From Candidatus Baldrarchaeota archaeon (lineage in GTDB: Archaea > Asgardarchaeota > Baldrarchaeia > Baldrarchaeales > DXJG01): a stretch of 32,000 nucleotides of DNA. Position 1 is the first letter of the stretch. Each line of letters begins with the position of its first letter. The stretch lies in assembly GCA_019056805.1 (NCBI GenBank), contig DXJG01000004.1:180001-212000 (forward strand), read 5' to 3'. The notes under the pieces are model-generated. The model saw only the letters and a list, made by a program, of their open reading frames with translations. It was not told the origin of the DNA and searched no databases. Below, one piece after another: positions 1-30,198 of the stretch. A program made the position numbers and the translations under genes.

Positions 1-1874
1 AATGGATCTTCAAATATTAAATCTTCTAATGTTGTACCCCCAGCTGAATATTGCATCTCACCCTTTGGATCTATCAGCGTCCATTCTATTATTCCAGTGG
101 AAGAACCATTTATAGCGAATCTTTCTGTATCAGTAGGGATGTAAAATCTGAATACTTGAAGATTTTCACCTTCAAGTCTCCCAGTTACTTGAAGCGGCGG
201 AGTTCCAAGTAATTTACCAATTACTTCATCTACGGTTAATGTAAAGGTTACGTTATCACCTGCTTGGATGAAAAGCGACCATACCCCATGTTCAGGGCTT
301 CTTATTAAATTAATCTCTGACAGTGAATATTCTTCGCCATAAGGACTTTTAATAGTACAATCAATAGAACCATTTGCATCCAAATTGAGTGGAATTGCTT
401 CAACTCCAGGTGGTACATAGAATTTGAAAATTTCTGTTTCCCCGCTTCTAAGGAAATCTGTAGTAATTACAGGTATCTCGCTAAATTCCTCTATAGATAA
501 TGTTTCAATTTCCATAAAGAACGCTATATTTTGAATATCTCCTGGGTTTTGAGCTATTATTCTGAGCATGTAGATTCCATGTAGAGGTTCGAAAAGAGGC
601 TCTATCAAGGGTAATGTTCCAATGTAATTTCCTAACGGGTCATATAGTTCAATTGAAAAGTCTATTAATTCTTCTGTAAATATGCTTAGTGAAGATACTC
701 CAGGTGGTACATAGAAGTGTAGAATTTTTTCCTCACTGCCCAATAAGTCACCTTCTACTATAAGTTTCTCTTTAAGGAGATCAGTACCTCCAATTAAGTC
801 AGGCGCTGAAACTAAAACTTTTAGAGTAACATTAACTGTCGAATCTGACGCTGTATTGTTTAATAGTACCTGCCATGTTCCTGGCATGGGATCTCTTACT
901 GCAAATTTGACAAAAACTCCACCTATAGTGGTAATTGGAGTATTAGTGGGGTCATACAATATCCATTCCGGATAATCTGTTAAGTTAGCTTCTCCTCCTA
1001 CGATAAGTTGATGAATACCCACTGGAACACTAAAATTAACGGTGACCATGGAATTATTTTCTACGATGATACTGTTATTTTCTAAAATTACATGTTTTTC
1101 AAGAAGTGTATAGTTTTGAATGTTCAACGTGTCATGTGGCACTATGACAACTGGTACACGCCAAGTTTGAGAAACGGGATTTATAACTGTGAAATTTATT
1201 TCTTCAATAATAAGTTCTGAAGTTTTCCACGTTTTTATTAAGAGAGGGAACTCTGCGTGTCCCCTAGGTGGAATTACATCTTTATCTTTGAGTGGTATAC
1301 AAATCTCATTAAGCTCATTAGGCAGTTGAAGTAAAACTGTGAGATTTGTATCTGTTAAACTCTCTACAACAATTTTTACAAGACTTTCTTCATAGCTTAA
1401 ACCTTCGAAGTAGAAATATGGGGGATTAATACGTATTAATGGATTAGATGGCTGAACTATGATAGAATAGTCTATCGTATTAATAATCTCTCCTGATGAA
1501 CTTTCGAAGGTAAAGTTTACCCATCCATGATAGGTAGCAGGTTCTAACGCTGATGTGTTAATTAATATGAAAGCCCAAGTTTCATTGGAGGGCATAAGCC
1601 ATTTAAGAGGATGCGTTGTATTGATAATTTGAGTTATATCAGATCTTTGAACATCAATTTTTTTTAGCCGAATGGTTTCGGTACCATTATTTGTTATGTT
1701 TGCTTTTAAAATGTAATATTCGCCTTTCTGCAATGTTATTCCTACATTGTCTGGTTCGATTACCACAGTATCATTTCCCTGGGCTTTTACAGTTATTTTT
1801 GATTGTAATGGTATTTGAATAAGTATTGTCAGAATTATGATGAGCAGCAAGCAACATACTTTTGTTTTTTGCAT
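1..1874 (-). CDS. Large secreted/cell-surface glycoprotein with Ig-like and tandem PPC-like beta-sandwich repeats (3'-truncated by window edge, >624 aa)
   Basis: Not in ORF track. Hand translation from ATG 1874 (GGTGA SD upstream) is open to position 1. It begins with a signal peptide (MQKTKVCCLLLIIILTILIQIPLQSKITVKAQ) and has many N-x-S/T sequons. Four repeats have the pattern F(Y/S)(V/I)PxG...L(Y/I)DPxG...PxxGxW. Confidence 0.85.
   Translation of the reverse strand, partial: MQKTKVCCLLLIIILTILIQIPLQSKITVKAQGNDTVVIEPDNVGITLQKGEYYILKANITNNGTETIRLKKIDVQRSDITQIINTTHPLKWLMPSNETWAFILINTSALEPATYHGWVNFTFESSSGEIINTIDYSIIVQPSNPLIRINPPYFYFEGLSYEESLVKIVVESLTDTNLTVLLQLPNELNEICIPLKDKDVIPPRGHAEFPLLIKTWKTSELIIEEINFTVINPVSQTWRVPVVIVPHDTLNIQNYTLLEKHVILENNSIIVENNSMVTVNFSVPVGIHQLIVGGEANLTDYPEWILYDPTNTPITTIGGVFVKFAVRDPMPGTWQVLLNNTASDSTVNVTLKVLVSAPDLIGGTDLLKEKLIVEGDLLGSEEKILHFYVPPGVSSLSIFTEELIDFSIELYDPLGNYIGTLPLIEPLFEPLHGIYMLRIIAQNPGDIQNIAFFMEIETLSIEEFSEIPVITTDFLRSGETEIFKFYVPPGVEAIPLNLDANGSIDCTIKSPYGEEYSLSEINLIRSPEHGVWSLFIQAGDNVTFTLTVDEVIGKLLGTPPLQVTGRLEGENLQVFRFYIPTDTERFAINGSSTGIIEWTLIDPKGEMQYSAGGTTLEDLIFEDP
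403..716 (+). repeat. Exact 20-nt direct repeat ACTCCAGGTGGTACATAGAA (403-422 and 697-716), marking intragenic domain duplication
   Basis: Read directly. The spacing is 294 nt (98 codons), and both copies encode FYVPPGV on the minus strand. Confidence 0.9.
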
Positions 1875-1926
1875 TACACATCACCCTAGACCTATATTTG
1901 GTCAGTTTCTTCCTTTCCACAATACA

Positions 1927-1950
1927 TTGTAATAATAATTATTATAACAA
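1927..1950. promoter_or_regulatory. 24-bp near-perfect palindrome TTGTAATAATAATTATTATAACAA, candidate operator
   Basis: 22/24 positions match its own reverse complement. It lies about 53 nt upstream of the surface-protein ATG in a divergent intergenic region. It is AT-rich, so chance is possible. Confidence 0.45.
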
Positions 1951-2216
1951 ATTGTAGTGATAGTAAGTAATATATTTTTTGGATTTGAATAACTTTACAA
2001 AACTAAAGGAACACGTAAAAGAAGTTCTTATTACAAACAAATTTAAACAATGTAAATTCCCGAAGCTTCCTTTAATGATGCATATTTAACATTTTTAATA
2101 TCGGCCAATTTTAACAAATTGATGTCCTGTTTATCTAATTTAGGAGTGTACAACAAGTTATATTAGGCACTGATGTGCTTTAATATTTAATCTTTGTTTG
2201 AATAGAGGAGTTAAAT

Positions 2217-2888
2217 ATGATTCCAGAAGCAGAAGTAGGATTAAAAAGACTTGTGAAACTGGCACCGGAAATCAAGAAACGTTTTCCATGGGTTATAGCG
2301 TTAAAGTTGAGTGGTTCTCTTGGAGATAACCAATATTTTGAAACTAATTTAGATGGTGTACAAATATGTAGCGATTATGATGTTGTTGTTTTAATAGATA
2401 GAATTCCAAGTAGAGAAGAAATAATAGAATTAATTAAACTATTAAAAACTCCATGTCTAAACTCTGACATTGAGAAAAAACTTTTAGAAAACATAGATGT
2501 AAAAATATTTACCACTGCATTCCCTGTACATGGAAAAATGAGAATACCATCAGTTTTTGATAGTAGTGAAACCGTTTGGCGTCATTTAATAGGTGGTAAA
2601 CCTGTTTTTGGAAAAGAAATTTTTGAAAAATATAGCGTAGCTAGTGATGAAAAAATCAGGTGGGCTCTTGTTGAAAGACATAAAAAACGTAAAAAAGCCT
2701 TTGATCTATATGCCCACGCTGGATTTCTTCTTCGTATAGCTAAAATACTTAGGAAAAATGAAGTCGCTAAGGAGATAATTGAAACTGTCAAAAAATACAA
2801 GGATTTTCATACGATATCTGACTGGCAAATAGAAGAATTTAAGAAGAAAATAAAGGAAATAGAAAATAAATTAGACTTCCGACTATAA
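2217..2888 (+). CDS. Pol-beta-superfamily nucleotidyltransferase-domain protein
   Basis: LSGSLG...SDYDVVVL motif (hGS...DhD), a third acidic residue in NIDVKIF, a helical C-terminus and a GAGGAG SD. Confidence 0.7.
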   Translation: MIPEAEVGLKRLVKLAPEIKKRFPWVIALKLSGSLGDNQYFETNLDGVQICSDYDVVVLIDRIPSREEIIELIKLLKTPCLNSDIEKKLLENIDVKIFTTAFPVHGKMRIPSVFDSSETVWRHLIGGKPVFGKEIFEKYSVASDEKIRWALVERHKKRKKAFDLYAHAGFLLRIAKILRKNEVAKEIIETVKKYKDFHTISDWQIEEFKKKIKEIENKLDFRL

Positions 2889-3057
2889 TTTATTAAAACA
2901 ACCAATAGCTTTAAAGTTTGGAATGAAACATTTATGATTAAAAAAATCGATACAATAAACAAAATTTATCTTAAAGTTGAATATATTTCAATAAAAACAC
3001 CACATTAAAACGATAATTGACTCAAAATCAAAAGTATTCCTTGGAGGAAACCCAAAG

Positions 3058-3873
3058 TTGGAGACTATTAAAAACGATATTAACAAATTAGTTAAAGGGT
3101 TACAAGCTTCCCCGTACATAGAAGCTGCTGCGATTTTTGTAAACCAAGGTTATCTTGTTGCTGGCTCTTTACCTCCTGATAGTGATAAAGTTGTACGAGG
3201 TTTTTTATCAATTACCCCTTTAAAAGAGGAGCAAAAAATGACTCTAGAAAGCAGTGAGGGCTCCTTAGGAATAGTTAAAGCAAAAAATCTCACAGCTGCA
3301 CTTCTCGCAAGAAAAGGAACTTCCATAGGACTATTATATGTTGAGTTAAAAAAGGCTTTAGAATCGCTTAAAAGATTTGAAGAAACTCGTCCAGAAATAG
3401 AGAAAATAATCGCCATTAAAGAGAAGGTTAGTCCTCCTTCCATTCCTTCAGAACCGTTGCAACCACCAATACCACCAGAACCAACTCCATTATCGAAACC
3501 TGAACCAGAAGTTATCAAAGAGGAAAAGCCAATTGAAGTTCCTCCCCCACCTCCTCCACCAACAGTGGAGAAAGAAAAATTGACTGTTGAAAAAGTTGAA
3601 GAAGTACCACCAAGCGAAGAAGCCGTAGAAGAGGTAGCCATCACTTGGAACAGCATTCTGAGTAAGAAATTATCCCTTATGGAGTTCTTAGATTTAGTTG
3701 AGAAAAATAAGTTAAACGAAAAATTTGGAAGCTGGCTTGCAGATCTTTTTATGCTCATTGACGGTGAAAAATCGGTTAGAGAACTAGCTAAAGGTATTGC
3801 ACGTAACGAGGGGGAGGTTCTAGAAGCTATAAAATTTTTGATTAGTAAAAAGGCGGTTGAAATAAAAGAGTAA
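3058..3873 (+). CDS. Roadblock/LAMTOR-like N-terminal domain + Pro/Glu-rich linker + C-terminal winged helix
   Basis: The N-terminus follows the roadblock pattern (IEAAAIFVNQGYLVAGSLP...SIGLLYVELKKALESL). The linker has a PPPPPPP tract. The C-terminus LIDGEKSVRELA...EVLEAIKFLISKKAVEI is wHTH-like. GGAGG SD precedes the TTG start. Confidence 0.7.
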   Translation: METIKNDINKLVKGLQASPYIEAAAIFVNQGYLVAGSLPPDSDKVVRGFLSITPLKEEQKMTLESSEGSLGIVKAKNLTAALLARKGTSIGLLYVELKKALESLKRFEETRPEIEKIIAIKEKVSPPSIPSEPLQPPIPPEPTPLSKPEPEVIKEEKPIEVPPPPPPPTVEKEKLTVEKVEEVPPSEEAVEEVAITWNSILSKKLSLMEFLDLVEKNKLNEKFGSWLADLFMLIDGEKSVRELAKGIARNEGEVLEAIKFLISKKAVEIKE

Positions 3874-3886
3874 GAGGGGATTAGGA

Positions 3887-4519
3887 ATGGTATTAAAAGA
3901 AAAATGGATTGATGCTGAAAAGTTTCCTAATACATACCCAGGAGGAATAATGGGAAGAAAAGATGCACGTAAAATCTTTGAACAATATAAAGTGACATTT
4001 GTGCCAAGTCATTTACTTGGTTTTTTAAGCTATAGTTTAACTAGTGTATTTGGAGATATGGAAAGATCGAGAAAAACTCTATACCATATTGGTAGGCAAA
4101 TTGGCAGAATGGTAGAGGAACTTTTAACTTACGGTAAGGTGGAACGTCCAGCTGAAAAGTTCAATGATTTAAATGACGTAATTAGAAATCATATCGGAAA
4201 TCTTAGAGTTGGACTTGAAGCTATTACGGGATTACCCGGTGATAACATTATAATGCGTGTAACTGAGGATCTAAACAAAATTAGAATTAGATTAATAGAA
4301 TGTCCACTTTGTACTTCTCTTAAATCTATGGGTTATAGAGAAGTCATATGGAAGATAAATGAACCTATGTGTGACTTCTACTCTGGACTTTTTGCAGGAT
4401 GGACCGAACATAGTATCAGAAATAATATCGGAGTCGAATGCAAAGAAACACGTTGTCAAATGGCTGATAAACACATTAACTTCTGTGAATTCTTGATTAC
4501 ACTTAAAAGACCAGAGTAA
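3887..4519 (+). CDS. V4R (4-vinyl reductase)-domain protein
   Basis: ECPLC...PMCDFYSGLFAG...KETRC...FCEF is the V4R signature, including C/E/C/C Zn-ligand positions. It starts 13 nt after the upstream stop. Confidence 0.8.
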   Translation: MVLKEKWIDAEKFPNTYPGGIMGRKDARKIFEQYKVTFVPSHLLGFLSYSLTSVFGDMERSRKTLYHIGRQIGRMVEELLTYGKVERPAEKFNDLNDVIRNHIGNLRVGLEAITGLPGDNIIMRVTEDLNKIRIRLIECPLCTSLKSMGYREVIWKINEPMCDFYSGLFAGWTEHSIRNNIGVECKETRCQMADKHINFCEFLITLKRPE

Positions 4520-8872: not shown

Positions 8873-9583
8873 CTATCTATTTTTTCTCTTTTTTATTTTT
8901 AATATGAAATGTACTGTTAATATGATAACAGCTATTAATGCTATAACATCCAATTTTCTAAAGAACGTGTCAATTATCATCCAATTTGGTCCTAAAAGGT
9001 ATCCTAAATAAGCTAATAAATAACACCAAAGAGATGACCCTATCGTAGTATATAACACGAACTTTTTTAAGTTCATTTTTCCAACACCCGCTGGAAAAGA
9101 AATCAAAGTTCTAACTATTGGTACTAATCTACTAATGAGAACAGATAATTCACCATATTTTTCAAACCATTCCTCAGCCATTTCAATATCTTTCTCGCTA
9201 ATCATAAAGTACTTACCATACTTTATTATCAGTTTTCTACCACCAATTAATCCTAAATAATACACTGCCAAGCTTCCCAGCAAACTTCCAATGGTTCCAG
9301 CTATAACTACCCCATATAATGAAAATCTTCCAAGATAAGCTAAATAACCAGAAAATGGCAATATAATTTCACTTGGAATAGGAAACACCACAACTTCTAC
9401 AGCTGTTAGCAACATTATACCAATGTAACCCATTGTAGATATTCCTTCAATAATTAGATCTGTTATACCTTCAACTAGTCCCATACTCGGAACGTTAATA
9501 CCTTCATAGAAGAAAATAAATATCGAGGCTATTCCAAGAAGAGCAAATAGTACTAACAGGACCATGTTTTCTTTTTGAACCAT
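8873..9583 (-). CDS. dedA: DedA/VTT-family membrane protein
   Basis: FPIPSEIILPFSGYL, GSLAVYYLGLIGGR and SRLVPIVRTLISFPAG. The likely start is ATG 9583 (GGTGGAG SD); the ORF track start is 9604. Confidence 0.92.
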   Translation of the reverse strand: MVQKENMVLLVLFALLGIASIFIFFYEGINVPSMGLVEGITDLIIEGISTMGYIGIMLLTAVEVVVFPIPSEIILPFSGYLAYLGRFSLYGVVIAGTIGSLLGSLAVYYLGLIGGRKLIIKYGKYFMISEKDIEMAEEWFEKYGELSVLISRLVPIVRTLISFPAGVGKMNLKKFVLYTTIGSSLWCYLLAYLGYLLGPNWMIIDTFFRKLDVIALIAVIILTVHFILKIKKRKNR

Positions 9584-9713
9584 TCTCTCCACCGATCGTA
9601 GCAATCCATCAAAAGAATTTTCAAGCTTAACTCTAAGTTTCTACCTAATTCTGTTTATTTTAATTTAAATGTTTCTAAACAAATCGATGTAAAACCCTAT
9701 AAACATCACATTC

Positions 9714-9726
9714 AAAAGCTTTAAAA
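9714..9726 (+). promoter_or_regulatory. BRE-TATA-like promoter AAAAGCTTTAAAA upstream of APC permease
   Basis: Matches the archaeal purine-rich BRE + TTTAAA box pattern. Similar AAAGCTT(T)AAA strings precede other genes in the window. Confidence 0.4.
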
Positions 9727-9817
9727 CACTGTAGGCAAGGAATTTTAACTATATTTGTTTATTCATCAACAAATCTCTACATTGATACAAAACATATACC
9801 CGACGCATAAAGGCCTC

Positions 9818-9832
9818 GGGTGGGTGGGCGGG
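9818..9832 (+). promoter_or_regulatory. G-quadruplex-forming motif GGGTGGGTGGGCGGG in putative 5' leader
   Basis: Four G3 tracts with 1-nt loops, ending 9 nt before the GTG start at 9842. It is the only conspicuous GC-rich intergenic patch in the window. Confidence 0.6.
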
Positions 9833-9841
9833 TGGCGGAAG

Positions 9842-11164
9842 GTGGACAAAAAAATAGAAATTAAGGAACTTTATGAAGTTGAATTAGTTAGAGAGCTAGG
9901 ACTAGTTGAAGCTATAACAATAGGCATAGGTGGAATGATTGGCGGAGGTATTTTCACAGTCATAGGTTTAGTTGCAGGTATAGCTGGCAAATTTGTTTTC
10001 CTAAGCTTAACTCTATGTACATTTTCCGCTTTATTAACTGGCTATAGCTACTCTGCCCTAGCAGAAAAATATCCAAGCAGTGGTGCTAGTTATGCATATG
10101 TTAAAGCTGGTTTTGGAGATTTTGCGGGAGGATTCGTTGCTTGGCTTATATGGTTTGGATACATCTCATCCTGTTCACTCTACGCCGTCTCATTTGGATA
10201 CTACATGTCTTATTTTGTTAACAGTCCCTGGAAAACGTGGAGCATCCTACTAATAGTTTTTCTAACCATTTTAAATTTAAGGGGTGCTAAAAAAACTGGT
10301 AGCGTTGAAAACATTTTAGTAGCTGCAAAAGTGGTTATTCTTCTCCTATTTGTTGGAGCAGGTCTTTTTTTCGCTTTACAAACTGGTTTAATACAGAGGC
10401 TCGAAGCTTATATCCCTGATTTCAATGAAAACTTTCAGTTCTTAAATATAATTTTAGGTAGTGGTTTAATTTTTATCGCATATGAGGGATTCGAACTTAT
10501 TGCGACAAGCGCTGAAGAATTAGAAAATCCGAGGAAAAATATCAGGAGAGCTATTTACATAAGCATAATCATTGTTTCAACAATATATCTCCTCGTGACG
10601 CTTGTTTCTTTAACTGTTGTTAATCCAGCTGAACTAATGATTAGTGAAGCTCCCTTAGCAGAAGCGGCAGAACGTTTCATGGGAAGTATCGGCGGAATTA
10701 TACTGGGTGTTGGAGGACTTTTTGCAACTGCTAGTGCTTTTAATGCAAGTTTATACGGTTCTTCGAGAATGATGTTTGCTTTAGCTAGAGACGATTTAGC
10801 ACCTAAAAAACTTGTTAAACTCAGCAAAAAGACTAAAGTACCTTATATTAGCATTATTTTTACTTCAAGTGTAATTGCAATTCTCACTTTAGCTGGTGTT
10901 TTACAAGATGTTGCAACACTTTCAAGCCTATTTTTTCTAATAATTTTCTTTATGGTCAACTTGTCTGCATTCAAACTTAGTATTAAAAGAGTACTTAAAA
11001 GTCATGCTTTATTCAGTATTGCTGCCTCAATTATTATTTTTGTAGTTACTGTTTTGCTGATATCCTATCTTTATACACCACTTATAGTAACAACCTTTGT
11101 AATCGCCGTAATTTCCTCCTTTTCAATAACAACTTACATGAACAAAACTAAAAGAAGAAGATGA
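9842..11164 (+). CDS. APC-family amino acid/polyamine permease
   Basis: RELGLVEAITIGIGGMIGGGIF, YPSSGASYAY, FIAYEGFE, ENPRKNI and SRMMFALARD, with about 12 TM helices. The probable start is GTG 9842; the track start of 9755 runs through promoter sequence. Confidence 0.92.
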   Translation: MDKKIEIKELYEVELVRELGLVEAITIGIGGMIGGGIFTVIGLVAGIAGKFVFLSLTLCTFSALLTGYSYSALAEKYPSSGASYAYVKAGFGDFAGGFVAWLIWFGYISSCSLYAVSFGYYMSYFVNSPWKTWSILLIVFLTILNLRGAKKTGSVENILVAAKVVILLLFVGAGLFFALQTGLIQRLEAYIPDFNENFQFLNIILGSGLIFIAYEGFELIATSAEELENPRKNIRRAIYISIIIVSTIYLLVTLVSLTVVNPAELMISEAPLAEAAERFMGSIGGIILGVGGLFATASAFNASLYGSSRMMFALARDDLAPKKLVKLSKKTKVPYISIIFTSSVIAILTLAGVLQDVATLSSLFFLIIFFMVNLSAFKLSIKRVLKSHALFSIAASIIIFVVTVLLISYLYTPLIVTTFVIAVISSFSITTYMNKTKRRR

Positions 11165-23350: not shown

Positions 23351-25309
23351 GTGAACAGAGTGAGGAAAGTATTTGCTACTTGTCCCAGAGATTGTTACGA
23401 TACCTGTTCTCTAATTGTCTATGTTGAAGATAATAAAATTGTTAAAATTGAAGGTAGAAAAGATCATCCAACAACTCAAGGATTCCTCTGTTCAAAAGCA
23501 AGGAAATACCTAAAATATGTTTACAGCAAGGATAGAGTTTTATATCCTATGAGAAGAGTTGGAAAGAAAGGTGAAGGAAAATTTAAGCGTATTAGTTGGG
23601 AGGAGGCTCTAAAAGAAATAACCAACAAGATAAAAGAAATAATTAGGGAATACGGGCCACAAGCCATATTGCACTATGAGTATGCAGGTCACTGTGGTCT
23701 TCTAAACTATTATTTCCCCTTAAGATTCTTTAATGCAATAGGAGCATCAAGTATTCAACATACAATATGCGATTCTGCAGGAGAAGAAGCAATAGCTTTA
23801 CACTACGGTTTACACTATGGATCTTTCCCAGGAGATATTTTGAAAGCTAAAATGATTGTTTTATGGGGTATAAACTCGGCTTGGACAAATCTTCACGGCT
23901 ACACACTTGTTTTAAAGGCTAAACGTAATGGGGCAAAAATTTATGTTATCGATCCGGTAAAAACGAAAACTTCAAACATAGGGATACACATACGTCCAAA
24001 GGTAGGTAGCGATGCAGCGCTTGCCCTTGGAATAGCAAACTACATCATAGAAAACAATTTGTACGATGAAAAGTTCATCGAGAAATATACTTTTGGTTTT
24101 GAAAAATTTAAAGAGCACGTAAAAAGTTTCACTCTAGATAAGACTTCCAAAATTACAGGATTATCTAAAGAGGAAATCACTAATTTTGCGGAGGATTATG
24201 CCAATCTCAAACCTAACATTATTCATATTGGCTATGGTATGCAACGACATTTAAATGGAGGGGAAATTGTTAGAGCGATATGTCTTCTTCCAGCCTTAAT
24301 AGGCTTACATAGAGGTTTCATCTATTGTAATGGAGTTAGAGATTTCGACCTAGACTATCTTACTGGAAAAAATTTGAGAAAAGTTCCAGAGAAAAGCATC
24401 AATATGGTTCAACTCGGCATGGCTCTTAAAAACGGGGAAATTAAAATGATTTTCATTTACGGTGCTAATCCCCTTATCACCCTTCCTAACCAAAATCTTG
24501 TACGAAGAATTTTCCAGCAAGAGGACTTATTTATCGTTGTACATGATATATTTAAGACTGAAACAGCAAATTACGCTGATATTTTACTTCCAGCAACAAC
24601 GTTCTTCGAAACTGTGGATGTACATGTTTCTTATTGGCATGAATATATCTCTATTAATGAAAAGGCTATTGAACCCTTGGGAGAAGCAAAAAGTAACGTA
24701 GAATTGTTTAAGGAACTAGCAAGGTACATGGGTCTAAATGATAAAGAACTTTATGAAGATGAATGGGAAATCATAAGAAATCTGTTGGCTAAAAGTAAAA
24801 TGGTTAACTTCACCTTGGAAGAATTGAGATCTAAGGGATTTGCTAAACTTAAGACTTTTCCGAAAGATGAATATCAGACGCCATCAGGTAAAATAGAATT
24901 TTACTCTCAAAAAGCTGAGCAAAGAGGTCTAAATCCATTACCACAACATGTAGAAATTAAAGGTAAATATCCTATTTTTCTCCTTACACCTAGGCATCGA
25001 GATATCTTAGGTTCTCAATTTAGAAATGTTATGCCTAGATTTGAACCTGTAATTGAAATAAATATTGAAGATGCCGTTGAACGAGGTATAAAAGATGGAA
25101 ATATTGTTGCTGTGTATAACGATTTAGGAGAAATTGTCTTAAGGGCTAAGGTTTCAGATAAAGTTCCTAGAGGTGTAGCATTAGCATATTTTTTCATTAA
25201 GGATCTAAAGGGAAGATGCATTAATACTCTTACTACTGATGAAACGCAGATTTATGGCGGATGTTCAACATTCAACTCCACTTTCATAGAAATTCGGAAA
25301 TTAAAGTAA
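23351..25309 (+). CDS. Cytoplasmic Mo/W-bisPGD oxidoreductase catalytic subunit (MopB_3/YyaE-YoaE-like, substrate unknown)
   Basis: CPRDCYDTC...FLCSK [4Fe-4S] motif, HTICDSAG (probable Cys metal ligand), LWGIN, YGANP, ADILLPATT, TPSGKIEF and a C-terminal binding domain. No Tat signal. Confidence 0.9.
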   Translation: MNRVRKVFATCPRDCYDTCSLIVYVEDNKIVKIEGRKDHPTTQGFLCSKARKYLKYVYSKDRVLYPMRRVGKKGEGKFKRISWEEALKEITNKIKEIIREYGPQAILHYEYAGHCGLLNYYFPLRFFNAIGASSIQHTICDSAGEEAIALHYGLHYGSFPGDILKAKMIVLWGINSAWTNLHGYTLVLKAKRNGAKIYVIDPVKTKTSNIGIHIRPKVGSDAALALGIANYIIENNLYDEKFIEKYTFGFEKFKEHVKSFTLDKTSKITGLSKEEITNFAEDYANLKPNIIHIGYGMQRHLNGGEIVRAICLLPALIGLHRGFIYCNGVRDFDLDYLTGKNLRKVPEKSINMVQLGMALKNGEIKMIFIYGANPLITLPNQNLVRRIFQQEDLFIVVHDIFKTETANYADILLPATTFFETVDVHVSYWHEYISINEKAIEPLGEAKSNVELFKELARYMGLNDKELYEDEWEIIRNLLAKSKMVNFTLEELRSKGFAKLKTFPKDEYQTPSGKIEFYSQKAEQRGLNPLPQHVEIKGKYPIFLLTPRHRDILGSQFRNVMPRFEPVIEINIEDAVERGIKDGNIVAVYNDLGEIVLRAKVSDKVPRGVALAYFFIKDLKGRCINTLTTDETQIYGGCSTFNSTFIEIRKLK

Positions 25310-25658: not shown

Positions 25659-26228
25659 ATGGAATTGGATTCAACAAAACCACTAATTAAAATTGATGAA
25701 GAAACCAGCGATTTTATAGCTGAAATATTGGAAAAAGGGGCGCAAATATTTCCAAAAGAGGAATTAGAGAGAATTCTCACATGTATTCAATGCGGGACAT
25801 GTTATGGAAGTTGTCCTTCTGGTAGAATAACGGCATATCATGTTAGAGTAATCATGAGAAAAGCACAACTAGGCCTCAAAGAAGAGGTATTAAAAGATGA
25901 AAACCTATGGAACTGCACAACCTGCTATACCTGTCAAGAAAGGTGTCCCAGAGAAGTTGAAACAACAGATACCATTCGATTAATTAGAAACATGGCTTTT
26001 GAAGCAGGGTACGTGAAAAAACCACATCTAATAGTTTCAAGGAACTTTATTGAAACAGGACACAGTATACCTTTGAGAGATGAGGACAAGGAAAAGAGAA
26101 AACGTGTAGGTGTATCTGAAATACCTCCAACCACCTTAACCTATCCAGAAGCTCTAAAAGAAGTTCAAACATTAGTTGAAGCTACTGGTTTTAAAGAAAA
26201 GGTTTTAAAACTTTTGGAGGAAGGGTAA
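25659..26228 (+). CDS. hdrC: Heterodisulfide reductase subunit C
   Basis: Two [4Fe-4S] motifs, CIQCGTCYGSCP and WNCTTCYTCQERCPR. Its stop directly abuts the hdrB ATG. Confidence 0.95.
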   Translation: MELDSTKPLIKIDEETSDFIAEILEKGAQIFPKEELERILTCIQCGTCYGSCPSGRITAYHVRVIMRKAQLGLKEEVLKDENLWNCTTCYTCQERCPREVETTDTIRLIRNMAFEAGYVKKPHLIVSRNFIETGHSIPLRDEDKEKRKRVGVSEIPPTTLTYPEALKEVQTLVEATGFKEKVLKLLEEG

Positions 26229-27116
26229 ATGACAAAATACGCTTTCTTTCTAGGCTGCATTGCACCTCTCAGATATCCAGGTCTTGAAGCCGCAACAAAA
26301 AGGGTTATGCAACATTTTAACATAGAACTTTTAGATTTAAATGGTGCATCGTGTTGTCCAGCTCCAGGAGTTTTCGGTAGCTTTGACTTGTGGAACTGGC
26401 TTGTAGTAGCTGCAAGGAATCTTTCACTTGGAGAATCACTTAATGCTGACCTAACAACCATTTGCAATGGTTGTTATGCAACTTTACAAGAGGCATGGCA
26501 CATATTAAAGGAAGATCCCAGCAAACGGAGACGTGTAAACGAAGTTTTAAGTAAAATTAACAGAAATTACAACGCTAAGACAGGAATTAAACATATAATC
26601 GAGGTTTTTGCTAACGATATAGGAATCGACAAAATAAAATCATCTGTTGAAAAATCTCTTGAAGGTCTAAAGGTTGCAGTTCACTATGGATGTCACTTTT
26701 TAAAGCCTAGAAAAATAAGAGGTCATGGTTCGAGTGAGAAGCCGCATATACTTGAGGATATTGTTACAGCTCTTGGCGCCGAGCCTGTACACTATAAGGA
26801 AAAATTGCTCTGCTGTGGTGCTGGCGGAGGGGTAAGGGCAGGCAACCTAGATGCAGCTCTAGAGATTACAGCAAGAAAATTAGCAAGTGTAAAAGAAGCC
26901 GGCGCCGACTGCATTCTTAACCCATGTTCCTTCTGTCACTTTCAATTCGACAGGGGACAGGTAGAACTTCGAGAGAGAAAAGGAATCGAATTTAATATCC
27001 CAGTGATTCATCTTGTTCAACTAGTTGGTTTAGCGATGGGAATTGACCCTAAAAGCCTAGGGCTGTATGAAAATGAAATTCCTCCAACATATCTAGATAA
27101 GCTAGGTTTGAGGTGA
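26229..27116 (+). CDS. hdrB: Heterodisulfide reductase subunit B
   Basis: Two CCG domains: FLGC...SCCPAPG...CNGC and HYGCH...CCGAGGG...CSFC. GTGA overlap with hdrA. Confidence 0.95.
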   Translation: MTKYAFFLGCIAPLRYPGLEAATKRVMQHFNIELLDLNGASCCPAPGVFGSFDLWNWLVVAARNLSLGESLNADLTTICNGCYATLQEAWHILKEDPSKRRRVNEVLSKINRNYNAKTGIKHIIEVFANDIGIDKIKSSVEKSLEGLKVAVHYGCHFLKPRKIRGHGSSEKPHILEDIVTALGAEPVHYKEKLLCCGAGGGVRAGNLDAALEITARKLASVKEAGADCILNPCSFCHFQFDRGQVELRERKGIEFNIPVIHLVQLVGLAMGIDPKSLGLYENEIPPTYLDKLGLR

Positions 27117-29509
27117 AAACTTTGGAGAAACCCCGTGTAGGTGTTTTCATATGTGAATGCGGTGGAAATATATCCGACGTTGTGGATGTTAAAAAAGTTG
27201 TTAAAACGGCTTCAGAATGGGAAAACGTCCTTGTAGCAAGGCATTACACTTACATGTGTTCAAAACCTGGTGTTGAACTCATCAAACAATCAATTAAAAA
27301 AAGAGAGCTAAACAGAATAGTTATTGCTTGTTGTACACCAAAAATGCATAGAAAAATGTTTGAGAGAAACGTGGGAGAGGAGGGTATAAACCCAGCATTT
27401 CTAGAAATTGTTAACGTTCGTGAACAATGTTCCTGGGTACATCATGGAGACAATGAAGGAGCAACTCAGAAAGCCATAGATCTCATTAGAGGTGCGGTTA
27501 AAAAAGTTGAAAATGCTGTTCCCCTACATCCTGGTAAAATGCCTGTTAAACCCGCTGTATTAGTTATCGGTGGCGGTATTGCCGGTATAACCGCTGCTTT
27601 ACGCGTTGCCGAAGCAGGAATAAAAGTTTACCTAGTTGAAAAAGAACCAACAATTGGAGGTCATATGGCTAAATACGCCAAAGTTTTCCCAACTCTAGAT
27701 TGTGCTCAATGTATTTTAACACCTAAAATGGGAGATGTTGCAGAAAATCCAAACATTGAGCTCTTTACTCTTGCTGAAGTAAAAGCTGTTGAAGGTGTTC
27801 CAGGAGATTTCAAAGTTAAAATTAAGCTTAAGCCTAGGGGAGTTGACGTTGAAAAATGTGTTGGTTGCGGTGCCTGTAATCGTGTATGTCCCGTTGAAAC
27901 GGTTTCCGATTTCGATGAGGGATTAGGAAAACGAAAGGCAATTTACATACCATTCCCACAAGCAGTTCCCTCAGCCTACGTTATAGATTTTGATAGCTGC
28001 ACAAAATGTGGAAAATGCGCTGAAAAATGTCCTAGAAAGGCTATAAACCTTGAAGATACAGAAAAAGAAATAGAAATAAATGTTGGAGCTATTATAGTTG
28101 CCACAGGTTTCAAACTTTTCGATTTAAGCGACTACGGCGAATACAAATACGGTATGCATCCAAACGTCATAACCGCATTACAAATGGAACGATTAATGAA
28201 CGTAGCAGGACCCACAAGCGGTGCCATAGTCCGTCCCAGTGACGGGGGAGAAGTCAAAAAGATAGGTTACATTCTATGCGCAGGATCGAGAGACACAAAC
28301 AAGGGTAAACCTTACTGCAGCCGTGTATGCTGTCTATATGCTACTAAGCAAGCATTAATGATGAGAGAATTCATGGAAGGCTTAGATATATGGATCCACT
28401 ACATAGATTTAAGAGCGGCAGGAAGGAGATACGAAGAATTCTATAAGAACGCTCAGATTGAAGGAGTAAAATACGTTAGAGGAAAAGTGTCAGAAATAAT
28501 TCCCGATGGAGATCAATTAATTGTCAGAGCCGAAGACACGATGTTAGGTAGACCAATAGAAAACAAGTACGATCTTGTAGTTCTATGTCCACCAATAGTA
28601 CCAAGCCCTGATATAACTAAACTCGCCGAAATACTAAAGATTCCACTTGATGAAGACGGTTTTGTCCTTGAAAAACATCCAAAACTCGATCCAGTTGCAA
28701 CAAAACGTGAAGGTATCTTCGCTTGCGGAGTTATAACAGGACCAAAAGATATACAAACATCGGTTTCAGAGGCTGAAGGAGCAGCTGCAAAAGCAATAAA
28801 CTTCCTAATACAAAAAGAGAAAATCATTGAACCAAACAAAGCCTATCTTGCCGTACCCGAAAAGTGCGATGCCTGTGGAGAATGTATTGAAGTATGTCCA
28901 ACCGAAGCAATCAGTATTGCAAGCGAGAAAGTTGAAATAAACGAAATTCTCTGTAACGGATGTGGAGCTTGTATACCCGCATGTCCCAAAGAAGCATTAG
29001 ACCTCAAAGGGTTATCAGAGAAACAATTAATGGCTGAAATAGAAGGAATATTAACCGGATCAGAATCTGAAATTAAAATACTTGCATTTGTCGAAAATGA
29101 AATCGCTTATACAGCCCTTGACCTAACCGGTGTCGCTCGTCTATCTTATCCAAGCAGTATCAGAGTTATACCCGTGCCTTCTACTAGCAGATTGAAGTTA
29201 AAACACATATTATACGCTTTTGCCAAGGGTGCTGATGGTATAATGTTCCTAGAAGCACCTGAACATGAAGGTCCATTCGGAAAAGCTCATGCAATTGCAG
29301 AAGAAAGAATTGAAAACTATAAATTTGACATCGAAGACTACGACGTTGATAGTATCAGACTCTGGTTCTCAAAAGTTTATGTTCCAGACTGGAGAAAACT
29401 GGTGAAAGTCTTTGAAACATTTGATAGAATGATAAAAGACGAAGGCCCCATAGAACAAGAAGTAAGAGAAAACATACTTAAACAGTTATCACAAGAAACA
29501 GATACCTAA
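27113..29509 (+). CDS. hdrA: Heterodisulfide reductase subunit A fused to a Cys-free MvhD-like C-terminal domain
   Basis: CECGGNI/MC/ACCTP/EQC N-terminal cluster, GGGIAG FAD motif and FPTLDCAQC. Inserted ferredoxin (CVGCGACNRVCP, CTKCGKCAEKCP), CAGSR...YCSRVCC and a C-terminal 2x[4Fe-4S] domain, followed by an MvhD-like fold from about 29075. Confidence 0.95.
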   Translation: MKTLEKPRVGVFICECGGNISDVVDVKKVVKTASEWENVLVARHYTYMCSKPGVELIKQSIKKRELNRIVIACCTPKMHRKMFERNVGEEGINPAFLEIVNVREQCSWVHHGDNEGATQKAIDLIRGAVKKVENAVPLHPGKMPVKPAVLVIGGGIAGITAALRVAEAGIKVYLVEKEPTIGGHMAKYAKVFPTLDCAQCILTPKMGDVAENPNIELFTLAEVKAVEGVPGDFKVKIKLKPRGVDVEKCVGCGACNRVCPVETVSDFDEGLGKRKAIYIPFPQAVPSAYVIDFDSCTKCGKCAEKCPRKAINLEDTEKEIEINVGAIIVATGFKLFDLSDYGEYKYGMHPNVITALQMERLMNVAGPTSGAIVRPSDGGEVKKIGYILCAGSRDTNKGKPYCSRVCCLYATKQALMMREFMEGLDIWIHYIDLRAAGRRYEEFYKNAQIEGVKYVRGKVSEIIPDGDQLIVRAEDTMLGRPIENKYDLVVLCPPIVPSPDITKLAEILKIPLDEDGFVLEKHPKLDPVATKREGIFACGVITGPKDIQTSVSEAEGAAAKAINFLIQKEKIIEPNKAYLAVPEKCDACGECIEVCPTEAISIASEKVEINEILCNGCGACIPACPKEALDLKGLSEKQLMAEIEGILTGSESEIKILAFVENEIAYTALDLTGVARLSYPSSIRVIPVPSTSRLKLKHILYAFAKGADGIMFLEAPEHEGPFGKAHAIAEERIENYKFDIEDYDVDSIRLWFSKVYVPDWRKLVKVFETFDRMIKDEGPIEQEVRENILKQLSQETDT

Positions 29510-29578: not shown

Positions 29579-30010
29579 TTATTTCTTGGCTTTTTCCATC
29601 TCTTTCTTTAACCATTCCTCTAATTTCGCATGGTCCGATCCTGGTATAAGATTTTTTAATTCTTCATCTAGATTTTCAGGTTCTATTATTGCGATCCACC
29701 CTTTTCCATAAGGATCATCATTTATTAGCGATGGATTTTTCTGAACTTCTTCATTTAACTCAACGATTTTCCCCGTGACCGGGGATTTTAATGGTCCGAC
29801 CCACTTTCCACTCTCGATTGTTCCAAGGGTTTTCCCTTGCTTTACTGTCTGCCCAACTTTTTTAGTCCTGATGAAGAGAATTTTTCCCGCAGCACTTTGA
29901 GCCCAGTCATTATATCCTACTTTTACCTTTCCATCTTCTATTTTTGCCCACATATGGTCAGGGTGGTAGTATAAGTCATCTGGGAATTCATGTTCTCCTA
30001 TCTTAACCAT
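29579..30010 (-). CDS. GcvH-family lipoyl-carrier protein, LbpA-like type
   Basis: FPDDLYY...HMWAK...GYNDWAQSAAGKI...TIESGKWVGPLKSPVTG...INDDPYGKGWI, with lipoyl Lys69. The start is ATG 30010 (GGAGGA SD). Confidence 0.92.
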   Translation of the reverse strand: MVKIGEHEFPDDLYYHPDHMWAKIEDGKVKVGYNDWAQSAAGKILFIRTKKVGQTVKQGKTLGTIESGKWVGPLKSPVTGKIVELNEEVQKNPSLINDDPYGKGWIAIIEPENLDEELKNLIPGSDHAKLEEWLKKEMEKAKK

Positions 30011-30198
30011 CTTAATACTCCTCCATCCACTATTACATCTAACCAATTTATACAACTTACTTAAAATATTATTCCCATTTCACAGAAGGTTTAATGATAC
30101 CAATGATCCTATTATTTGATTCGAAAAATAAGTTTTAAGATTAATAAACAAATAAAATTAAGGGTCATGTGTTGATATAAAGATTAAAAATAGTTTGT

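Follow-up and report, generated by a model that had tools for sequence, protein, structure and literature searches.

A cysteine-less MvhD domain fused to HdrA in a Candidatus Baldrarchaeota archaeon and its relatives

The window described here is a 32,000-nucleotide stretch of contig DXJG01000004.1 (positions 180,001 to 212,000) from the assembled genome of a Candidatus Baldrarchaeota archaeon (GCA_019056805.1; 1.92 Mb, 91% complete), and it includes a set of heterodisulfide reductase (Hdr) genes organized as hdrC-hdrB-hdrA and transcribed in the forward direction. The hdrA gene (27113–29509, 798 aa) codes for an HdrA core fused at its C-terminal side to an MvhD-like (FlpD) domain (29075–29446, HdrA residues 655–778), in which all four cysteines that hold the [2Fe-2S] cluster of MvhD are replaced. 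We describe the organization of this protein, the distribution of its Cys-less relatives, and the ways in which such an HdrA might work.

The HdrA core is intact, with the cluster motifs and the flavin-side Glu and Lys all in place as the original prediction had it. Pfam recognizes the flavin adenine dinucleotide (FAD) fold and four Fer4 stretches, and all Cys sets for six [4Fe-4S] clusters are present. The N-terminal domain (27113–27517, residues 1–135) has the Cys of the HA3 shuttle cluster, with C14, C16, C49, C73/74 and C106 present and (nearly) invariant in the clade, and the set C389/402/406/407 is also present. The inserted ferredoxin domain (HA5/HA6; 27833–28066, residues 241–318, Pfam Fer4) has two invariant sets of cysteines, C249/252/255/259 and C296/299/302/306. 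The C-terminal ferredoxin domain (HA1/HA2; 28823–29008, residues 571–632, with Fer4_7 at 584–628) is kept despite the loss of the next relay, and in a set of 42 sequences its eight cysteines (C585/588/591/595 and C614/617/620/624) are invariant apart from C588, which is at least 90% conserved. Gapless alignment to 8rvu_a and 5odc_A places the conserved Cys pair C197/C200 (27701–27712) at Cys202/205 of the M. marburgensis HdrA, with C200 equivalent to Cys197 of the M. thermolithotrophicus enzyme; both are Cys in all 106 close homologues and in 41 of 42 sequences of the wider set. The flavin-side residues E359 and K412 likewise correspond, again in a gapless alignment, to E356 and K409 of the solved enzyme, and residue 359 is Glu in 106/106 members of the window's subgroup. 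We note that all six sequences of the Methanobacterium/Methanoperedenaceae group have Ala in this column, with a Glu two residues before it. The whole-protein AlphaFold2 (AF2) model has a pLDDT of 90.7 and a pTM of 0.78, and the core is 44–48% identical to solved HdrA proteins with TMt up to 0.90. The best NCBIfam match is the HdrA2 model NF040770, with a score (876.5 bits) below its cut-off of 1100.

The fused domain is a member of the MvhD family by profile and by fold, and it lacks the ligands by which the family is defined. Residues 656–775 match PF02662 (FlpD) over profile positions 1–120 of 123, scoring 90.4 bits (E 1.1e-25) where the cut-off is 22.3 bits. The segment had been recognized by eye at 29075–29449 (residues 655–779) from the strings KILAFVENEIAYTALDLTG, RVIPVPSTSR, FAKGADGIMFLEAPEHEGPF and EGP, all of which are present in HdrA, and both the profile alignment and the AF2 model bear out its assignment to MvhD. 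A phmmer search against chains of the Protein Data Bank (PDB) finds MvhD homologues only (9sfi_K, 3e-13; 7bkb_F; 8rvu_F; 5odc_D), and a profile built from 47 Cys-less domains also matches MvhD chains only, end to end (5odc_D, E 5e-25); identity between the Cys-less domain and solved MvhD is 26–29%. The AF2 model of residues 640–798 has a pLDDT of 92.1, and below E 1e-3 it matches just four chains in the PDB, all of them MvhD/ElpC, including 5odc_D, 8rvu_F and 7bkb_F, on which it superposes with TMt 0.87–0.93 and a root-mean-square deviation of 1.5–1.8 Å; the MvhD fold is therefore kept.

The [2Fe-2S] ligands of MvhD are C13, C42, C67 and C72 in the M. thermolithotrophicus numbering (5ODC_D), and in a gapless alignment to the solved MvhD chains these columns are occupied in HdrA by E661, S690, A715 and G720, respectively. 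The accessory Cys16 is I664, His68 is P716, and Asp71 is E719. The Cys16 column, second of the five, is frequently Ser in Cys-bearing domains (pattern CSCCC), which agrees with Cys16 not being among the four ligands. The last Cys of the protein is C624, and the 174 residues that follow it are Cys-free, in line with the roughly 170 first reported. The 3' end of hdrA is thus predicted from its sequence to encode a genuine MvhD-fold domain that is unable to bind a [2Fe-2S] cluster.

Contigs of three other marine metagenome studies match the stretch with zero differences, and one of these spans 28870–29389, including all five replaced-Cys codons; since identical DNA is found in the metagenomes of other studies, the Cys loss is not an assembly artefact. 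Metagenomes carrying this DNA are of subsurface, marine and vent origin, and no RNA data set was listed for the stretch. Purifying selection acts on the domain as strongly as on the flavin core: among 106 full-length close homologues its mean entropy is 0.58 bits compared with 0.59 for the FAD core, and 68 of its 124 sites are at least 95% conserved. Against a 92%-identical relative the domain has a dN of 0.021 with dS saturated, so that for selection only this dN and the whole-gene dN/dS (0.037) are reported. Residues that are both conserved and specific to the clade lie nearly all in the domain (G645, H698, E714 and P758, plus G18 outside it). The former cluster loop now reads LEAPEHEGP, an acidic/His motif, and the positions of the former pocket (E661, S690, H698, E714, P716, E717, H718, E719 and G720) are 97–100% conserved in the 106 close homologues, with the exception of H718 at 92% (97/106). 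The pocket motif is absent from the Methanobacterium/Methanoperedenaceae subgroup, where the columns are D-I-S-Y/G-gap.

Cys-less MvhD domains are not confined to this genome. A word-indexed search with the domain yields 162 proteins, and we checked 121 C-terminal tails, consisting of 120 homologues among the matches listed and the window's own (domain identity 62–91%). The last 165 residues are Cys-free in 115 of the 121 and contain one stray Cys in the other six, only one of which sits at a ligand column (column 3). The named homologues among them are labelled Bathyarchaeota or Bathyarchaeia. An exhaustive HMMER search of 1.84 billion representatives yields 646 proteins, and about 45 of the best 150 of these (50%-identity clusters) are Cys-less, with a recurring D/E - I/V - S/T - G/A - G pattern and identities down to about 27%. 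Cys-less members include a protein of cultured Methanobacterium (WP_069582731, 791 aa), one from a metagenome-assembled genome (MAG) of Methanoperedenaceae (PWB49702), and others from Nitrososphaerota MAGs. The class to which the window's genome belongs is represented by five species genomes in the collection, and its nearest named homologues are nonetheless labelled Bathyarchaeota; because there are only five, prevalence within the class is uninformative and the lineage is poorly sampled.

In a tree built on all columns from fused and unfused HdrA proteins of 80 species-representative loci and database matches, the 17 Cys-less proteins of archaea fall into a single clade (SH-aLRT 99). With the MvhD columns removed there are two Cys-less groups, Bathyarchaeia/Nitrososphaerota (99) and Methanobacterium/Methanoperedenaceae (98), which are joined weakly (73), with a long-branch Cys-bearing sequence beside the second; an approximately unbiased (AU) test does not reject a single Cys-less clade (p 0.165). 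These groupings and the AU result fit one to three old losses. Bacterial sequences from Gemmatimonadota (no Cys) and Fidelibacterota (two Cys) pair together, and their attachment to the archaeal clade depends on inclusion of the MvhD columns. The HdrA2 group of Methanosarcina, Methanolobus and Methanothrix lies elsewhere in the tree and keeps all five Cys (CCCCC). The Cys loss is thus a fixed hallmark of an old HdrA clade in several archaeal groups with bacterial sisters, and not a peculiarity of one gene; the original prediction had proposed to look for clade-wide loss under purifying selection, and both are found. In addition, five genomes of the phylum carry a pair of distinct Cys-less HdrA proteins, one with about 58% and the other with about 40% identity to the domain of the window HdrA, so the Cys-less lineage has itself been duplicated. 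In a recent survey of 1,152 HdrA sequences, type Ia is presented just as a fusion to a [2Fe-2S] MvhD, and we found no mention of a Cys-less MvhD domain in full-text searches, which reached few subscription papers and hence are not proof of novelty.

The two genes upstream of hdrA are of the canonical type. HdrC (25659–26228, 189 aa) scores 199.6 bits with TIGR03290 (CoB_CoM_SS_C; cut-off 160) and has a Pfam 4Fe-4S dicluster domain, and HdrB (26229–27116, 295 aa) scores 411.6 bits with TIGR03288 (CoB_CoM_SS_B; cut-off 345) and contains PF02754 (CCG) twice. Further upstream is a rightwards-transcribed gene for a cytoplasmic molybdopterin oxidoreductase (23351–25309, 652 aa). The protein has a 4Fe-4S domain at its N terminus, lacks a twin-arginine signal, and scores below every NCBIfam cut-off, the best match being Fdh-alpha (TIGR01591, 354 bits, cut-off 666). 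In two 92%-identical congeners only about the first 88 codons of this gene remain, and it is therefore probably not an obligate donor module. Downstream of hdrA, and convergent with it across a 70-bp gap, is a leftwards-transcribed gene for a GcvH-like lipoyl carrier (29579–30055; PF01597, 126.7 bits) that keeps the lipoyl-Lys motif ESGKW. The genome has a second GcvH (contig C6, 89601–89966) and a GcvP (contig C17), and the GcvH-like copy may function either in glycine cleavage or, by analogy to LbpA in sHdr systems, in an Hdr-linked role. The GcvH-like gene and the helix-turn-helix and thioredoxin genes downstream are common only to the 92%-identical congeners. Four open reading frames at the far left of the window (3–4519; lengths 624 aa at the window edge, then 223, 271 and 210 aa) match no Pfam family at E 1e-5.

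The relatives of this HdrA are encoded in operons of differing make-up. In the nearest non-congener and four further archaeal loci, a divergent fumarase gene is followed by hdrC', hdrB', a ferredoxin-like gene, a FAD_binding_2 flavoprotein gene, and the Cys-less hdrA, with a malic enzyme gene after it either directly or past a short insert. The best match of the flavoprotein is TfrA, at 315 bits and well under the cut-off. The Gemmatimonadota sister has hdrC', hdrB', ferredoxin-like and flavoprotein genes beside its Cys-less hdrA, and the Fidelibacterota sister has fumarase and two hdrC'B' pairs; these flavoprotein operons suggest a fumarate-linked Hdr-type complex. In Methanobacterium and Methanoperedenaceae, hdrC-hdrB-hdrA stand alone with no donor module, and in the Methanoperedenaceae MAG we note that the Cys-less hdrCBA adjoins a sulfur-relay set of two tusA and three dsrE genes (9401–10952 of that locus). 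The window operon has no flavoprotein gene, its HdrCB are only 28–35% identical to the HdrC'B' of the relatives, and its HdrB is 28% identical to HdrB' of the flavoprotein-type operons. The window HdrA is nested among members with flavoprotein operons, and most likely, by parsimony, the window's genus re-partnered an HdrA of the flavoprotein lineage with canonical hdrCB.

The genome codes for three HdrA paralogues. The first of the other two (contig C6, 121067–123412) is a 794-aa HdrA-MvhD fusion with the canonical five-Cys pattern (FlpD, 165 bits), is 42% identical to the window HdrA, and groups with the Methanosarcina/Methanothrix HdrA2 proteins. It is encoded together with a 439-aa polyferredoxin, hdrC, hdrB and cooC (C6, 110001–130000), adjoining cdhA, cdhB, cdhC and cdhD of carbon monoxide dehydrogenase/acetyl-CoA synthase, cooT and Ftr, and the locus looks like an Hdr tied to the Wood-Ljungdahl pathway. 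The remaining paralogue is a short HdrA with its own hdrCB. The two FlpD domains of the genome are both fused to HdrA; a third match, on contig C9, is a false positive in EF-1alpha. We found neither a free MvhD, nor a match to the FrhB/FdhB family, nor genes of the MvhAG, FdhAB or ElpAB type in this 91% complete assembly. A single full-length [NiFe] hydrogenase gene was found, which is 3b-like/sulfhydrogenase-like, and there are two further N-terminal matches of NiFeSe type. Genes coding for fumarase alpha and beta, TfrA and TfrB lie in a row on contig C9 (112138–117001); TfrA scores 700 bits (cut-off 718) and TfrB 433 bits (cut-off 385), and the locus is predicted to encode a thiol:fumarate-reductase-type enzyme in a host where neither McrA nor ComA was found.

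In the Mvh-, Fdh- and Elp-Hdr complexes of known structure, the MvhD [2Fe-2S] cluster receives electrons either directly from MvhG or by way of HA1/HA2, and passes them on to the flavin of the partner HdrA, past Cys202/205 (PMC12350162, PMC13580544). The N-terminal domain, the C-terminal ferredoxin domain and MvhD together make up a mobile arm in these complexes, and recent cryo-EM maps show Asp71 of MvhD in contact with a ligand of unidentified nature that is bound by Cys202/205 of HdrA (PMC13580544). With all cluster ligands replaced, the iron-sulfur-wired input cannot work here as it does in these complexes, as was originally proposed. The domain has kept its fold and lost its ligands in an otherwise intact HdrA, and the most economical reading is the scaffold without a cluster that had also been put forward: the domain is probably a cluster-free structural part of the HdrA arm, and electrons would enter at the flavin as hydride or from ferredoxin.

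The Cys-less MvhD domain would survive as a structural piece of the mobile arm, which would still pack on the partner protomer near its flavin, with C197/C200 kept and the former cluster loop rebuilt as LEAPEHEGP so that E719 takes the place of Asp71. By one route a two-electron donor would deliver hydride directly to FAD, as is reported for M. acetivorans HdrA2B2C2 with F420H2 (PMC5296606). The genome encodes CofD, CofE and Mtd, which makes F420H2 the best candidate for the donor, and NAD(P)H may also serve. The presence of cofE in the window had been taken as a link to F420, but cofE is 22 kb away and unlinked, and F420 use is supported only generally by CofD, CofE and Mtd. By a second route ferredoxin would enter via the inserted ferredoxin domain, with the enzyme running between ferredoxin and the HdrBC disulfide site. 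In either case the acceptor would be the disulfide site of the canonical-type HdrBC. The disulfide need not be CoM-S-S-CoB, since McrA and ComA were not found in the genome (91% complete), and a candidate is the product of the TfrAB-type thiol:fumarate reductase encoded beside fumarase.

Several observations weigh against this scaffold reading. The Cys of HA1/HA2 are conserved, though in the solved complexes these clusters lead only to the MvhD cluster. The rebuilt pocket (E661, S690, H698, E714, E717, H718 and E719) is more conserved than a filler needs to be. The hydride donor is a guess, as we identified no feature for binding F420 or NAD(P)H and did not find CofH in the genome; and the absence of a cluster across the Cys-less clade is itself predicted from sequence.

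The retained HA1/HA2 clusters, the chief puzzle for the scaffold reading and hard to explain if the arm is unwired, favor an alternative in which the Cys-less MvhD domain and HA1/HA2 form a docking platform, with electrons passing between a docked redox module and HdrA via HA1/HA2. In the relatives the module would be the TfrA-like flavoprotein and the ferredoxin-like protein, with the partner encoded elsewhere in the window's genome, and the whole would be a fumarate-linked, possibly bifurcating Hdr-type complex. This agrees with the clade-wide conservation of the HA1/HA2 Cys, with Mvh, Fdh and Elp docking on exactly this arm in solved complexes (PMC12350162), with the flavoprotein operons flanked by fumarase and malic enzyme genes in the nearest non-congener and the four other archaeal loci, with the gene sets of the Gemmatimonadota and Fidelibacterota sisters, and with TfrA being the best family match of the operon flavoprotein. 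However, the window operon has no flavoprotein genes and its hdrCB are of the other, canonical type, Methanobacterium and Methanoperedenaceae also have hdrCBA alone, and the upstream molybdopterin oxidoreductase is only a remnant in congeners. Moreover, no path from HA1 to the flavin that bypasses the [2Fe-2S] cluster is known, and the flavoprotein module might equally attach to HdrB'C', as in TfrB. We regard the docking platform as unlikely, while giving it some weight because of the retained HA1/HA2 clusters.

Two further alternatives center on the rebuilt pocket. It is doubtful, although conceivable, that E661, H698, E714 and E717-H718-E719, together with C197/C200 of the partner HdrA, form a non-iron-sulfur site by FAD that binds a metal, a thiol-type ligand or a hydride donor and so actively loads the flavin, in a lineage ancestrally coupled to a fumarate-reductase-like flavoprotein; if so, the enzyme would be an electron-bifurcating fumarate reductase. 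More generally, the former pocket could bind another cofactor or metal through carboxylate, His and Ser side chains (E661, S690, H698, E714, E717-H718-E719), perhaps with the Cys pair of the partner HdrA, and still help to pass electrons or protons to the flavin. The near-invariance of these residues in the close homologues (H718 the least, as noted above), the clade specificity of H698 and E714, and the conservation of the Cys202/205 equivalents are consistent with such a site, as is the alignment of E719 with MvhD Asp71, a ligand contact in cryo-EM (PMC13580544). The motif is not kept in the Methanobacterium/Methanoperedenaceae subgroup, however, and a salt-bridge or hydrogen-bond network that merely fills the pocket also fits. 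We are aware of no [2Fe-2S] site that lacks both Cys and His2 ligands, and a replacement cofactor of this kind is highly improbable. Finally, that the domain is a decaying relic, or its Cys loss an assembly or sequencing artefact of the MAG, follows only from the a priori expectation that ligand loss means function loss, and is refuted by the identical DNA in other studies' metagenomes, the intact reading frame, the low dN (with dS saturated), conservation equal to that of the FAD core, the confident fold model, and the fixation of the trait in a deep clade.

Whichever way electrons enter, the clade bears on a broader question. In all Hdr complexes solved so far, the MvhD [2Fe-2S] cluster is the final stop for electrons on their way to the bifurcating flavin, and the crossing from it to FAD is still an open step in flavin-based electron bifurcation. 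A large lineage that keeps the domain, the Cys pair and HA1/HA2 but is without the MvhD cluster is a natural experiment on this step, and with members in cultured Methanobacterium such proteins can be purified. There is also a practical consequence. Cys-less HdrA proteins are routinely annotated either as 'hydrogenase iron-sulfur subunit' or as HdrA2, names from which uncultured archaea are then credited with bifurcation linked to H2 or F420, and this conclusion is not safe for the clade.

Among known systems, the one invoked by the original prediction is HdrA2 of Methanosarcina acetivorans, a type Ia HdrA-MvhD fusion (PMC5296606, PMC12054007). The two proteins share their domain order, with the N-terminal domain followed by a FAD core that contains the inserted ferredoxin, then by the C-terminal ferredoxin domain and the fused MvhD, and a donor module is absent from both operons; HdrA2B2C2 uses neither a hydrogenase nor Fdh to oxidise F420H2 and ferredoxin (PMC5296606). 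HdrA2, however, retains the Fe2S2 motif (PMC5296606), which the window HdrA lacks, and the window HdrA is below the NF040770 cut-off and in the Cys-less clade (99) rather than the HdrA2 clade. By score, motif and tree position it would therefore not be classed as an HdrA2. The parallel does not hold for this protein, and the F420H2 activity of HdrA2 is not simply transferable to it; the Cys-bearing paralogue on contig C6 is the one that falls inside the HdrA2 clade.

The solved MvhD, VhuD and ElpC subunits (5ODC_D, 7BKB_F, 8RVU_F) have the same fold, align with the window domain end to end, and share an acidic residue at the Asp71 position, but they are free subunits, whereas the window domain is fused and has its four ligands, Cys16 and His68 replaced. 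The Methanobacterium HdrA WP_069582731, named 'ferredoxin:CoB-CoM heterodisulfide reductase subunit HdrA' (NF041891), is similar in having a Cys-less MvhD domain and an hdrC-hdrB-hdrA arrangement and in belonging to the same broad clade. It differs in being only about 41% identical and in another subgroup, with pocket D-I-S-Y-gap and Ala in place of the flavin-side Glu, and the window HdrA scores 758 bits with NF041891, below the cut-off of 1300. TfrAB of Methanothermobacter (NF004900/NF004898) resembles the operons of the relatives, which pair a Cys-less HdrA with a TfrA-like flavoprotein and with CCG and iron-sulfur proteins, but TfrAB has no HdrA, and in the window's genome TfrAB and the Cys-less hdrA are unlinked. 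The sHdr systems have a short HdrA without ferredoxin domains together with lbpA, dsrE and tusA, whereas the window HdrA is of the long six-cluster type; of sHdr-type neighbors the window has only the GcvH-like gene, which is found in congeners only, and TusA and DsrE are seen only at the Methanoperedenaceae locus.

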